This document shows, in pieces, positions 46,140 to 63,049 of a stretch of DNA of 64,000 nt (position 1 is its first letter; each line of letters starts with the position of its first letter). This DNA is from an uncultured Clostridia bacterium (GTDB lineage: Bacteria; Bacillota; Clostridia; TANB77; CAG-508), in contig CALXUS010000002.1 in assembly GCA_944391745.1 (NCBI GenBank), positions 35,027 to 99,026 of the forward strand, read 5' to 3'. The position numbers were made by a program, and so were the translations under genes. The notes under the pieces are model-generated. The model worked only from the letters and a program-made list of their open reading frames with translations, had not been told where the DNA came from and ran no database searches.

Positions 46140-47609
46140 ATGAAAAAGAAGATTGTTTGCCTACTAATTGTATGCATGAGTGTACTATTAGTAGGCATTG
46201 TTTCGTATGGAGCAGATTTTACAGAAGTTGATGCAACTACAACAAGAGTAATACAAAAAGAAAGTGATTATAATTCGGAAATTTCAGTTCCAATTACGAA
46301 GGAAGAATTAAGCCCAAAGCCTTCATTACTTAATATAAATGTACCTACTGACATTTATATGGTAGGCTATTTGGATTATGATATGGCATATCAGGTCCTT
46401 GATCTAGTAAATCAAGAAAGAAGAAATGCAGGACTTAATGAATTGCAGATGGATACTAGCTTGTTAGATTCAGCAATGCATAGAGCTGCAGAAACAGGAC
46501 TAGTATTTGACCATACAAGACCTAATGGATTAGACTGCTTTACAATGGATGATAGAATGTGGGCAGAAAATATAGCCTCTGGACAACCTACTGCACAGTT
46601 GGCTATGGAATCATGGATGACATCAGAAGGACATAAAGCAAATATTCTTAATGAAAGCATGAATTGTATAGGAATAGGATGTTTTAATTTTCAAGGAATT
46701 TATTACTGGACACAATGTTTTGGAGTAGATAAAGCACAAGTGCCAACAAAGCCGGACAATGCTTTAGTAATAGCTAAAATTTCAGCTATTACAGAAAATC
46801 TACAAATAATAATAGATACTAATGAAGTAACTTTAAAACCACAAGAAACACATCAATCAATATTGTACAATGTTAATATTGGATTTCCTATTCAAGGATC
46901 AGGAATACAACCAGAATCAGCAGTGTGGACTACATCAGATTCAAAGGTTGCAACAGTCAATGAAGAAGGCTTAATTACTGCAGTTGGAGTAGGAACTGCT
47001 ACTATTACAGCAACAATTCAGGATATAAAATTTGATGTAACAGTAAAAGTAGATTTACCATTTAAAGATGTAACAAGAGATAAATGGTATTACAATTCTG
47101 TTGAATATTGTTATAAAAATGGAATAATAATGGGAACAACTGATACAACATTTTCACCAAATAATAATTTAACAAGAGGAAATTTAGTAACATTATTATA
47201 CAGAATGGAAGGATATCCAAAAGTAGATGGAGAAGTTTCATTCCCAGATGTAAAAGCAAGTGATTATTTTTATGAAGCTGTAAAATGGGCTGAGAAAACT
47301 GGAATAGTACATGGATATGAAACAGGAAAATTTGGACCAAATAATAATATATCAAGAGAACAATTAGCAACAATATTATTTAATTATGCAAAATATAAGA
47401 AAAAGGATACATCAGCAAGAACAGATTTAAACAAATTTACAGATAATAATAAAATCTCTAGTTATGCTAGAGAAGCAGTATCATGGGCAGTAGCAAAAGG
47501 TGTAATGAGTGGAAAAAATGAGGGAACTAGAGTTGATCCACAAGGAAGAGCTACTAGAGCAGAGGCAGCAGCTATGATACAAAATTATTGTAGTTATGTA
47601 GGAAGATAA
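46140..47609 (+). CDS. Secreted CAP(SCP) domain + Big_2 + 3xSLH protein
   Basis: Signal peptide, LVNQER...HTRP...ENIA...WMTSEGHKANIL, WTTSDSKVATV and an SLH tail (FKDV...TRAE). Confidence 0.88.
   Translation: MKKKIVCLLIVCMSVLLVGIVSYGADFTEVDATTTRVIQKESDYNSEISVPITKEELSPKPSLLNINVPTDIYMVGYLDYDMAYQVLDLVNQERRNAGLNELQMDTSLLDSAMHRAAETGLVFDHTRPNGLDCFTMDDRMWAENIASGQPTAQLAMESWMTSEGHKANILNESMNCIGIGCFNFQGIYYWTQCFGVDKAQVPTKPDNALVIAKISAITENLQIIIDTNEVTLKPQETHQSILYNVNIGFPIQGSGIQPESAVWTTSDSKVATVNEEGLITAVGVGTATITATIQDIKFDVTVKVDLPFKDVTRDKWYYNSVEYCYKNGIIMGTTDTTFSPNNNLTRGNLVTLLYRMEGYPKVDGEVSFPDVKASDYFYEAVKWAEKTGIVHGYETGKFGPNNNISREQLATILFNYAKYKKKDTSARTDLNKFTDNNKISSYAREAVSWAVAKGVMSGKNEGTRVDPQGRATRAEAAAMIQNYCSYVGR
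47061..47609 (+). repeat. 549-bp SLH-tail repeat copy 1 (most diverged)
   Basis: TTTAAAGATG...GTAGGAAGATAA, colinear with the other five copies. Confidence 0.85.
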
Positions 47610-47672
47610 ATTTATCTTGAGGCAGTCCTTAAGGTGAAAAATAATACATGCAAATATAAAGGGGGTATATAG

Positions 47673-62200: not shown

Positions 62201-63049
62201 TACAATAATATAGAAGACATATCAGGAGTTAAAGATTATAAGTGCTTGGGTAAGTTAAATTTAAGCAATAATAAAATAAAAGACATTTCAAGTTTAAGAG
62301 AATATGACTTTAAGATAAACGAACCTTGGGAAGACATGGATGAAACTGATGAAATTATAGAACTATTATCTGAATTTAAAGGAATAGACTTATCTTCAAA
62401 TAATATAGATGTAAACTCTTCAGGTAATAAGGCAGTGATACAAGTATTTAAGAATAAAAAAGTTAATTTAAATGTAAGTAATCAAATTAGAGACTTACCA
62501 TTTAAAGATGTAAGTAAAAATGTATGGTACTATAATTCAGTAAAATATTGCTATGAAAATGGAATAATAGTGGGAACAACAGATGAGACATTTTCACCAA
62601 ATACAAATGTAACAAGGGGAAATTTAGTAACAATACTTTGGAGAATGGAAGGAAACCCAGTAGTATCAGGAAATTTATCATTCCCAGATGTAAAACAAAG
62701 TGACTACTACTATGAAGCAGTAAAATGGGCAGAAAAAACAGGAGTAGTACATGGATATGATACAGGAAAATTTGGACCAAATAACTATATTTCAAGAGAG
62801 CAATTAGCAACAATATTAAATAATTATGCAAAATACAAAAAGAAGGATACATCAAAAAAGGCAGATTTAAGTACATTTACAGATAACAAGAAAATATCAA
62901 GCTATGCGAAAGAAGGAGTAGCATGGGCAGTAGGAAACAAAGTAATGAGTGGAAAAAATGAAGGAACAAGAGTAGACCCACAAGGAAAAGCAACAAGAGC
63001 AGAAACTGCAGCTATGATACAAAATTATTGTAGTTATGTAGGAAGATAA
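56249..63049 (+). CDS. Large (2266 aa) secreted modular LRR protein with EF-hand-like caps + 3xSLH
   Basis: Signal peptide, ~350-aa internal modules each starting with FxxxxLKNYLLxxYDxDxDxKITxxDM, LRRs and an SLH tail. Confidence 0.9.
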   Translation: MKKIKLVIVSFIFILICNYYIIPVAYAAENVLENEENQYNEVSTLSDDTDTEIDFASNSLKNYLLSYYDSNYDNKITKYDMEQITYLEIPFLGDDEEVIDIKGIEYATSLESLTLYNSTNLKVLENLNSLESLTLNSIESEEDLKSIKNIPNIKYIKLSSIDLNKYSLSELPTKIESLRIDSCELSNIEDIKNFSNLQTLEIYGNGFPEDKLENLDAINELPKLNYLTIHNFNLTDLKFLENNNSIVDLNVAYNKIEDISTINTMKKLNLVDIAYNNLKDVSILENSPLIQFTTIQQDLTFGLGDIKKGETVEIDLPQIVKDAFDSSSSFYMEDAYMYKTKEEENGAYVSDDNSKIIVNTEKISLGDKNERFELSGNGKLSGTTIYLNYTIRANGDSNKEINFASEKLKNYLLENNDIDNDGKITEYDMTQITELYLPYLDETIDLQGLEYATSLERLYVSYAENLQVLTNLDKLEHLEVQEIFSDEDFQALNNIPNLKNLSLSSVDFNKYKLSDLPKNIEILYLNSCYIDNIEEIKEFSNLKELNIYGRQYSENELTGLNSINELSNLRNLTINNLELKNIDFLENNNYIENLNVYSNEITDISVVNTMKNLKQISISNNNIQDVSILEDSSLIDNEQINQKIVFDNLEAIQGQTLEIDLPQTVKSMFNPDSRFYAEGAYIVRDWNMTGEEGVNINVDDLKIIIDASNLNMGEKEENFTIYGDGALSGTEIKVRYNVRAPGDNKKEVSFKSESLKNYLLENYDIDNDDLITQYDMAQITELYIPYSENNEKTDLQGLEYATSLKYLSVPNGVNYEVLTGLQNLEHLEIDNIYAQEDYKAIKNIPNLKSLSLSYINMQEYALTDLPMNLTKLRLNNCDLNDISKINQFTNLESLEINGTYSNQKVTGLDAINSLTNLKNLSLTYMDLTDIEFLRNNNYLETLDVSGNDLTDISVIKTMKNLNNAYFQYNNIQDVTSLKGTKFINQDNNIAQNINFNVEGISGEQIEIDLPQTIKSALNENDEIFGIKDLRIEYSGYSNNGENKSIARISDDKTKIILDTSDIDLGSGNQYIYFYGSGILSSSSIYISYKIYADGDKTKEVEFEDEDLKNYLLQNYDIDADGKITEFDMAQIQSLSINNIYLDSVKGLGKAKNLKYLDLSINTNYDSNNKAIPVDLSEIAELKKLESLYLYGNTRNIEFLTEMKNLKILYVEIHYDNPENIHILENLKNLENLTITGEIETLEPLSNLVNLDSLTIDSSSNGIKDLTYLKKLTNLTSLTLRGNFEKWENFDEIGKLKNLVSLHIYRYDGNENLPIDYSFINELSNLWSLDIKDSYTNFDCSLIKPNNLSHLYLKVNSLLNIDQLGNLSKLYSLDIESSKLSDIEFVRNLDLDSLTLRNNYVTDLTPLENMNVNYVDLINNPINPEEYDNSRIIELYGDKLQLTEYEKTKKLEFKDKDFKEELLKQYDLNRDEEISIYEMEQIKYLSANNLEHAEYLTNLESLSISSISLDRDGQLALIEEINKLKPEVQISNSYMAINIDIGDLHQSKEEYVFNVDEEVPILKEFEDVNSRLYIGKLNLEESYIDKNIATFDGKKLSMNLDRVGEQNYYISYRIDGTYSNVSISVNWRVITDGDNSKVITFKDSNLNKKLVEYYDLDNDKKFTEYDANNIAALNIDSSEIESLEGIEKLKNLRELYASYNNISNLEPLRNMQTLEIMNLMYNDITNIEPIMGLENLNWIDVYYNKITDISCLKNRKFELTRYLGFGGNFVDFSNDSKQLEIYISELKKDVDKEGGNYIDESLVCSFASSQKYGNPADFGKEVKMNSKIKDKLIKAGADLNNDKKLTAEELYKATNSYYDDSNDEYYDAVVKSLDLSNMGLTDITGLEYLTGLKSLNLSHNNISNIKPLAYLMNLTNLDLSYNKITDISCLPYYAYNQIERTINLSHNNISDMSSINNWVITYNTYYSEWQAGEGINSRLLNLDLSYNNIEDISGVKDYKCLGKLNLSNNKIKDISSLREYDFKINEPWEDMDETDEIIELLSEFKGIDLSSNNIDVNSSGNKAVIQVFKNKKVNLNVSNQIRDLPFKDVSKNVWYYNSVKYCYENGIIVGTTDETFSPNTNVTRGNLVTILWRMEGNPVVSGNLSFPDVKQSDYYYEAVKWAEKTGVVHGYDTGKFGPNNYISREQLATILNNYAKYKKKDTSKKADLSTFTDNKKISSYAKEGVAWAVGNKVMSGKNEGTRVDPQGKATRAETAAMIQNYCSYVGR
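62501..63049 (+). repeat. 549-bp SLH-tail repeat copy 6
   Basis: Near-identical to copies 4 and 5. Confidence 0.92.

Follow-up and report, generated by a model that had tools for sequence, protein, structure and literature searches.

How do neighbouring genes keep their ends alike while the parts in front of those ends differ? The question is raised by six genes of an uncultured Clostridia bacterium that encode surface proteins with different N-terminal domains and all finish in a closely similar 549-nt tail. They lie at 46140-63049 of a 64,000-nt stretch of DNA, here called the window (GenBank assembly GCA_944391745.1, contig CALXUS010000002.1, positions 35,027 to 99,026); coordinates are those of the window and features are on its plus strand unless stated otherwise. 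The assembly of the source genome, G000, comprises 1.65 Mb in 32 contigs with about 27% G+C and is 94% complete. The part of each array gene upstream of its tail is referred to as the passenger, and spacer, passenger and tail together as the cassette; array genes are named A1-A7 in G000, and those of three relatives B1-B7 (G040), C1-C8 (G037) and D1 (G012). The reading that we favour, with odds of roughly four in five, is that the genes form a tandem seven-gene family anchored by S-layer homology (SLH) domains inside a polysaccharide locus, that the anchors are homogenised by recombination, and that the same homology rearranges the cassettes over longer times.

A preliminary description of this DNA had reported six co-oriented genes with indel-free 549-bp tails. 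Open reading frames (ORFs), repeat family and alignment bear this out: six co-oriented ORFs each carry a C-terminal tail, the tails belong to one repeat family, they align in register without indels, and all six terminate in ...VGR-TAA. The count has to be raised by one, since a seventh member, A7, which runs off the window, carries the tail too. Each of the seven tails contains three SLH domains (PF00395, E 1e-33 to 1e-38), and all 21 SLH matches of the G000 assembly fall in the seven array genes. The tail matches the SLH trimer of Bacillus anthracis Sap (PDB 3pyw and 6bt4, E about 2e-10; residues 1-174 of 182).

The passengers are of several kinds. A1 (46140-47609) encodes a signal peptide, a CAP domain and Big_2 ahead of its tail (47061-47609); it is an edge copy whose tail is 82-85% identical to the others. 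BspA-type leucine-rich repeats (LRRs; family LRR_5) make up the passenger of A2 (47673-48995, tail 48447-48995), and internalin-like LRRs (LRR_4 / LRR_EndoS) that of A3 (49078-52275, tail 51727-52275). A4 (52370-54982, tail 54434-54982) combines Big_2 with a weak CAP match (23.2 bits, cut-off 21.1). The 223-aa passenger of A5 (55007-56224, tail 55676-56224) matched no Pfam family, its best Atlas score was 0.79, and the comparison with PDB gave one weak lectin match (E 0.0048) with no stretch passing on its own. A6 (56249-63049, tail 62501-63049) is a 2266-aa protein with many LRRs and three internal repeats of about 1040 nt. The 614-aa product of A7 (63193-64000, continuing to contig position C2:100063) consists of a GH73-like N-acetylglucosaminidase region, which matches PDB 6fxo and 4pi7 (E 1.7e-8 to 2.3e-6), SH3b and the triple-SLH tail. 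Pfam confirmed the domains that had been assigned from the letters alone, CAP in A4 only weakly. The passengers had been called mostly unrelated; they do fall into distinct families, but passengers 3 and 6 are paralogous (over about 870 aa, A3 is 34% identical to the C-terminal portion of A6) and passengers 1 and 4 have a Big_2 stretch in common. A separate start codon is present in each of the seven genes, and inspection by eye suggests a separate ribosome-binding site (RBS) and a signal-peptide-like N-terminus for each as well. The direct repeats within A6 (56535-59661, repeat families D3-D5) have a period of about 1035-1056 nt and are 62-75% identical; this giant LRR protein therefore owes its size to a block of about 345 aa that was triplicated within the gene. 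A3 and A6 also show weak matches to EF-hand and dockerin-like calcium loops.

The similarity of the tails is graded along the array. Tails 2-6 are mutually 91.1-98.4% identical at the nucleotide (nt) level, and the run of 314 identical bp reported for tails 2 and 3 was found again (48570-48883 = 51850-52163, tail offset 123). The label near-identical fits these five tails and not tail 1, which is 82.5-83.4% identical to them; tail 7 is 81.8-84.9% identical to all others. Ahead of the tail, 30-nt bins have identities of 16-63%, for the most part 20-45%. Tails 3-6 reach 93-100% already in their first 30-nt bin, which makes the boundary sharp at tail base 1; tail 2 shows 66% in the first bin and attains the level of tails 3-6 only from the second. 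Beyond the stop codon the only homology is that between the 4-to-5 and the 5-to-6 junction (80% over 45 nt). There the 24-nt spacer after gene 4 (54983-55006, with a GGGGG RBS) differs from its paralogue after gene 5 (56225-56248) at 2 positions, and both are followed by ATGAAAAAA. The remaining junction pairs are at background level, 26-51%, and the earlier proposal of a repeated unit made of tail, RBS and start therefore applies to these two junctions and not to the others. Antisense ORFs of 103-124 aa on the minus strand of the tails (47062-47373, 54435-54809, 55677-56051 and 62502-62876) were rejected as genes: an antisense frame of at least 100 aa is open in 5 of 21 tails (A1, A4, A5, A6 and A7), none of them from other genomes, and such ORFs are almost certainly not genes.

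The age of the passengers was judged from related species. Among 44 species genomes of the genus, G000 counted, SLH domains occur in five; among the 18 that are at least 90% complete they occur in three. G040 has an array of seven genes and G037 at least eight SLH genes. Both arrays follow the same pyruvyl transferase and flippase genes as in G000, and contig ends with a partial tail lead into the same downstream genes as in G000. G012 retains only an orthologue (D1) of the autolysin gene A7, and G051 has a single fused LRR_5+CAP+Big_2+SLH gene beside gyrA. Once the tails are removed, the passengers are orthologous between species. In G040 the orthologues are B1 for A1 (65%), B2 for A2 (71%), B6 for A3 (80% over 865 aa), B3 for A4 (60%), B4 for A5 (54-58%) and B5 for A6 (57% over 2122 aa); in G037 they are C6 for A2 (67%), C3 for A4 (58%) and C5 for A5 (67%), and C2 and C4 of that genome have no orthologous passenger in G000. 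A7, a conserved edge member, corresponds to B7 (84%), C8 (77%) and D1 (74%).

Several further observations concern the SLH genes of these relatives. The distribution of SLH in the genus is patchy, with a single gene or a single array where it is present; in four sister families of the order, SLH-tail matches were found in 9 of 12 sampled genomes, over several contigs. LRR_5, CAP, Big_2 and an SLH tail are fused in one protein at L008:5806-8838 (G051), L010:13485-15833 and L019:7724-10549, and G000 splits the same domains over two neighbours, A1 (CAP+Big_2) and A2 (LRR_5), each with its own tail. The A4 orthologue of G040 is disrupted (L002:15991-16379, minus strand, upstream of B3): an ATG with a signal-peptide-like ORF meets a TGA after 37 codons and the gene body goes on in another frame, either by a frameshift (pseudogene) or by an assembly error.

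The tails do not follow the passengers. In a maximum-likelihood tree of 21 complete tails, they cluster by genome, then by adjacency, and not by passenger orthology. The supported clades are A2+A3 (100/98), A4+A5+A6 (97/94), A2-A6 (99/98), B5+B6 (100/97), C6+C7 (100/99) and all C tails (83/83). B7 and C8, the autolysin orthologues, have partial tails that were compared separately; these too have their nearest matches among the tails of their own genomes. Approximately unbiased (AU) tests reject all six of the groupings predicted by orthology of the tail-less passengers (p = 9e-37, 0.0013, 2e-42, 0.0007, 5e-78 and 0.021). Six amino-acid and 12 nt differences are fixed between the seven A tails and the seven C tails (7/7 in each). 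Invariant arrays and tails clustering by position, the outcomes named beforehand as refuting the recombination reading, were not found. There was no signal of positive selection on the tails; whole-tail dN/dS (the ratio of nonsynonymous to synonymous divergence) between species is about 0.19-0.44.

Synonymous divergence (dS) dates the two parts of the genes differently. Orthologous passengers of G000 and G040 have dS of 0.57-1.02, six flanking genes 0.62-0.93, and tails compared between species 0.46-0.73. Within G000, dS is 0.056-0.112 among tails 4, 5 and 6, 0.138 between tails 2 and 3, and 0.25-0.32 between the 2-3 group and the 4-6 group; edge tails 1 or 7 differ from the rest by 0.49-0.69. 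The comparison of tails within and between genomes that had been suggested earlier thus yields 0.06-0.32 for tails 2-6 against 0.46-0.73 between species. Since the passengers are about as diverged as the flanking genes and the interior tails are less so, the age of the passengers equals that of the species, and the interior tails are much younger.

The differences among tails are also arranged in tracts. The pairwise homoplasy index (PHI) test gave p = 0.0005 (A), 0.0225 (B) and 0.0005 (C), and a Bonferroni-corrected run test was significant for 8 of the 21 A pairs, 1 of the 15 B pairs and 3 of the 21 C pairs. The further apart two tails stand in the array, counted in positions, the more they differ (Mantel r = 0.46, 0.50 and 0.73; p = 0.024, 0.031 and 0.0004 for A, B and C). 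We concluded that the near-identity of the anchors is explained by concerted evolution through patchy, distance-dependent gene conversion, and that homogenisation within a genome appears to be fastest for interior copies and slowest for the two edge copies. The earlier suggestion that the anchor also serves as the recombination site gains support from the tail clustering, the mosaic tracts and the low dS among tails 2-6.

These data would fit the following course of events. Seven secreted proteins would be held on the cell wall by a C-terminal SLH trimer, and their co-oriented tails would recombine repeatedly and patchily, by gene conversion or unequal crossing-over. Exchange would begin exactly at the first SLH codon and mostly stop at the stop codon; the passengers would be old and vertically inherited, and the tails repeatedly overwritten by their neighbours. 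In the longer term the tail homology would serve as a crossover site that moves, adds and removes whole cassettes, with the result that sister arrays would come to differ. Recombination of the RecA type is the probable mechanism, and recA is present elsewhere in the G000 genome.

Rearrangement between species is visible in the order of the cassettes. With G000 numbering, the order in G040 is 1, 2, 4, 5, 6, 3, 7; that in G037 is 1-like, new, 4, new LRR, 5, 2 (C6, at position 6), CAP-like, the autolysin gene lying on another contig behind spoIIP. G040 and G037 also differ from each other in order. Between G000 and G040 a single relocation, that of the type-3 cassette to a place between types 6 and 7, is seen in an otherwise identical order. 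The 82-nt hairpin spacer upstream of A3 (GGGACGG...CCGTCC, 48996-49077) is homologous to the spacer upstream of B6, and in G040 a second hairpin copy stands between the B6 tail and the conserved spacer belonging to the autolysin gene. Cassette 3 thus sits elsewhere in G040 together with its upstream spacer and between tail boundaries, to judge from the aligned arrays. The relocation would be consistent with the crossing-over and circle-reintegration model of the Staphylococcus aureus lpl cluster. A terminator-like hairpin also lies after A3 (52320-52343), a weak indication taken alone, with 3 such sites found against 3.1 expected by chance. The preliminary description had spoken of gain, loss and reordering: order and content do differ among the three array-bearing species, and one relocation is what separates G000 from G040. 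Read from sequence comparison, the array anatomy, the concerted evolution of the tails and the rearrangement between species can be taken as demonstrated.

Exchange at a finer scale was seen in a distant relative. A scan of metagenome contigs found no same-species strains of G000 (best full-length tail match 59% aa, one partial match 69%). Two of them, L010 and L011, are 97.2% identical over 11.5 kb and represent two strains of the relative; each carries, behind genes for a pyruvyl transferase and a flippase, an array of four SLH genes with the same domain repertoire. In the middle of tails 1 and 2 each strain has variants of its own that both tails share, and at the 3' ends of these tails the strains have swapped sequence. 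The identity of tail 4 to tail 3 is 96.9% in one strain but 81% in the other, and one tail 3 has a 3' end of the tail-1/2 type. As seen in these metagenome assemblies, the pattern suggests that conversion still goes on at the level of strains.

Genes of a wall-polysaccharide locus surround the array. On its upstream side are glycosyltransferases, EpsG, a CsaB-like polysaccharide pyruvyl transferase (43521-44576; PF04230, E 1.9e-34) two genes ahead of the array, and a Wzx-like polysaccharide flippase (44598-46007; PF01943, E 1.5e-17) that forms its left border; downstream are a UDP-glucose dehydrogenase, YchF, an LCP-family ligase, a sugar transferase, glycosyltransferases and a Wzy-like protein. 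The pyruvyl transferase has orthologues ahead of the arrays of G040 (62%) and G037 (64%) and also of L010, and the flippase is the same left neighbour in all three. Loci of this type are known to supply the ligand of SLH trimers (PMC6030368, PMC10435577). Here the pyruvyl transferase presumably makes the pyruvylated wall-polymer epitope bound by the SLH trimers, and the tails would bind that polymer. Between the flippase and the first SLH gene, G037 has a gene of a PD-(D/E)XK transposase family (L004:12980-13819; PF12784, E 6.6e-46) and an extra Branch-type glycosyltransferase gene, both absent at this place in G000; among the array genomes only G037 has such a transposase-family gene beside its array.

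A number of observations weigh against the proposed history of recombining anchors. The PHI test on A2-A6 alone gave p = 0.059, and the run test is weak in G040, with its single significant pair out of 15. No single excision or insertion accounts for the two hairpins in G040 together with the lack of one after A6 in G000. Homology of spacers between species is visible by eye only for cassettes 1, 3 and 7; because the other spacers are too diverged, the statement that the spacer travels with its passenger holds for the one moved cassette only. The gene order of G000 crosses exact tail repeats of 121-314 nt, and the k-mer contigs of the metagenomes end inside every tail and are compatible with a G040-like order. 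Given these breaks and the long exact repeats, the relocation between G000 and G040 depends on the assembly path. In G040 no exact run is longer than 74 nt and in G037 none exceeds 106 nt, and for this reason the orders of these two genomes, and the difference between them, are safer. Simplification of the metagenome graph could also inflate the exact identity of the tails in G000. On the side of the ligand, PF04230 occurs in 26 of the 44 genus genomes as compared with SLH in 5 of 44, and finding it does not point specifically to an SLH ligand; co-occurrence of PF04230 and SLH in the genus, tried as a discriminator, was dropped because the family is too common.

An alternative, or rather an extension, is that homogenisation is itself adaptive. 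Gene conversion would then re-key all SLH clients to one fast-changing, species-specific pyruvylated wall polymer, and the tail would be a portable docking and recombination module able to capture any secreted domain. If true, this would account for the array lying inside the polymer locus, for its being the sole home of SLH in the genome, and for the fast divergence of the glycan genes, which are 62-77% identical at the aa level between G000 and G040 where adjoining housekeeping genes are 90-97% identical. A selective benefit of some kind, for instance every anchor being kept matched to one wall ligand, would be plausible under the favoured history of recombining anchors; the full adaptive version, which asks for more, seems to us unlikely.

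The preliminary description had gone further in another direction and postulated a dedicated, recombinase-free, RecA-driven shuffling system, with frequent excision, reordering and import of cassettes within populations and rapid surface variation. Parts of it stand. The tails are long, co-oriented and highly identical, and they recombine; tail exchange between strains is seen in the relative (L010 and L011); order and content differ between species; one cassette has moved with tail-bounded breakpoints; recA is present; and no match to a recombinase or transposase family was found in 48 ORFs (39 in the window and 9 downstream). A dedicated or fast system is quite improbable on the other evidence. 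The passengers are diverged as much as the flanking genes, which means that no recent import is visible, and a single relocation separates G000 from G040. Neither tblastn nor blastn found further tails or cassette fragments, silent, partial or stray, in the G000 assembly, where sequence outside the array matched it only in three GH73 paralogues and in two short LRR or Big_2 stretches. Every gene is equipped with a start codon of its own and, to judge by eye, with its own RBS and signal peptide, unlike systems with a single expression site.

Population data point the same way, within their sample: Logan k-mer contigs of four metagenome runs from four studies, a biased sample in that the runs were chosen for holding this region. 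The contigs of the four runs cover all 30 array bins, and two studies reproduce the same seven units of tail end, spacer, passenger and tail start. The only joints listed within the stretch have 20-23 nt on the shorter side, lie mostly in LRR repeats and are flagged as unreliable; the k-mer contigs, which could not reveal rare ones, contain no reliable deletion or circle joints. Most runs holding this DNA carry the label chicken gut or feces metagenome; the label of one study is air metagenome, and other runs are entered simply as 'metagenome' or under a coded organism. Within the A4 passenger, seven differences fall in 28 nt (53053-53080); they are common to contigs of two runs, X3 and X10, from different studies, and are not in X1, and the cluster could reflect a small tract of recombination or one multi-nucleotide event.

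Less probable still is that near-identity or gene order is an artefact of repeat collapse or consensus threading in short-read metagenome assembly. The exact runs of G000 do exceed usual k-mer sizes, and not only do the Logan contigs break in every tail, the G040 and G037 assemblies break at tails too. Against this, k-mer depth in two studies is about 3x that of neighbours in the bin of tail 4 (54414-55014) and about 1.5-2x in the bin of tail 2 (48404-49004), as expected of real multi-copy words. Clustering by genome is also found in G040 and G037, whose exact runs are short, and each tail keeps private differences at both ends that are linked to unique flanks in the contigs. Finally, that the tails are alike through recent duplication, or through strong purifying selection and codon bias at 27% G+C, without any recombination, would agree with the functional constraint on SLH trimers, the restricted codon choice of an A+T-rich genome and a between-species tail dS somewhat under that of the flanking genes, but it is contradicted by passenger orthologues at species-level dS (the genes predate speciation, yet their tails cluster by genome), by a within-genome tail dS far under the between-species value for the same codons, and by the clustering of tail differences in tracts, a pattern that neither purifying selection, codon bias nor recent whole-gene duplication gives.

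Elsewhere in the window, a 626-aa protein with RCC1 repeats (PF00415, PF25390) is encoded at 26728-28608, and five ORFs near it (14863-16101, 16116-16853, 22160-23689, 24497-25882 and 25896-26543) have no Pfam family at E <= 1e-5. A promoter scan returned 141 sites against 135.8 expected and is uninformative in such A+T-rich DNA.

The array is relevant to how gut Clostridia build and vary their surface, and it is a natural test case for the co-evolution of SLH anchors and wall polymer. It also holds a lesson for annotation and assembly: contigs break in tails, tail phylogenies mislead on orthology, and gene order needs long reads. Among programmed surface-variation systems, the sap homologues of Campylobacter fetus are clustered genes with a conserved terminal block of about 600 nt and RecA-dependent recombination, and systems of this type have a single promoter or expression site, the other copies being silent. 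The genes described here differ in being co-oriented and complete, with translation signals of their own and no silent cassettes. Neither the silent cassettes nor the one expression locus of programmed antigenic or phase variation is found, all seven genes being complete ORFs, nor does an integrase or invertase family, as expected of integron-like or shufflon-like cassettes, lie adjacent in the 48 ORFs scanned.

The S-layer cassette and cwp cluster of Clostridioides difficile resembles the array in that a triple-repeat wall-polymer anchor module is common to a gene cluster and surface cassettes are exchanged by homologous recombination (PMC4973711, bioRxiv 10.1101/2025.04.02.646754). There the anchor is CWB2 and not SLH, and strains exchange a cassette that includes slpA; in the passages bearing on the comparison, no homogenisation of anchors between tandem neighbours is described. 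For giant surface-protein genes of Apilactobacillus, the relevant part of one report finds no recent gene conversion between cluster members (PMC12863079), which makes them a contrast and not a precedent. Our literature search found no paper describing gene conversion or concerted evolution of anchors in SLH arrays.

Display by SLH trimers on a pyruvylated polymer is represented by Sap and EA1 of B. anthracis and SpaA of Paenibacillus alvei, with which the array shares a terminal SLH trimer (PF00395 x 3, with the Sap match described above) and, in one locus, the PF04230 pyruvyl transferase, the flippase and the LCP ligase (PMC6030368, PMC10435577). Here all clients lie in one array inside the polymer locus, and no obvious lattice-forming S-layer protein is recognisable among them. 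The trimer is C-terminal on every client, whereas in Sap and EA1 it is N-terminal.

Ectopic gene conversion of bacterial paralogues has its textbook example in the duplicated tuf genes. The array is like them in its clustering by genome, low synonymous divergence, mosaic tracts and sharp boundaries. It differs in having seven participants instead of two, in the conversion of the anchor module alone, in the distance gradient with lagging edge copies, and in the coupling of conversion to cassette rearrangement between species.

The closest parallel is the lpl cluster of S. aureus, tandem lipoprotein paralogues that recombine at a conserved region (Tsuru and Kobayashi, 2008; PMC2568036). In the sections of that paper that bear on the comparison, both systems consist of co-oriented tandem surface or lipoprotein genes, each with a highly conserved stretch that is the recombination site, and no dedicated recombinase takes part; the unit that stays linked in lpl is the intergenic region plus the next variable region, as it would be here for the moved cassette 3. 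Deletions, conversions and translocations in lpl are attributed there to unequal crossing-over or to circle excision and reintegration (PMC2568036). By the same sections, the conserved stretch of lpl is central and the passengers are diverged paralogues, whereas here it is a 3'-terminal functional anchor behind unrelated domain families. Because the anchor is 3'-terminal, recombination swaps whole passengers and makes no new chimeric ORFs. Homogenisation within a genome is strong here and, in those sections, could not be detected by the lpl authors (PMC2568036), and the rearrangements are between species here and between strains there. The process is already known in kind, from the lpl-type model (PMC2568036) and from ectopic conversion of paralogues, and involves no new mechanism; the array is a clean and unusually complete multi-genome case of a functional protein module that also provides the homology for recombination, in which one anchor is kept uniform while the seven business ends that it carries evolve independently and are occasionally reshuffled.

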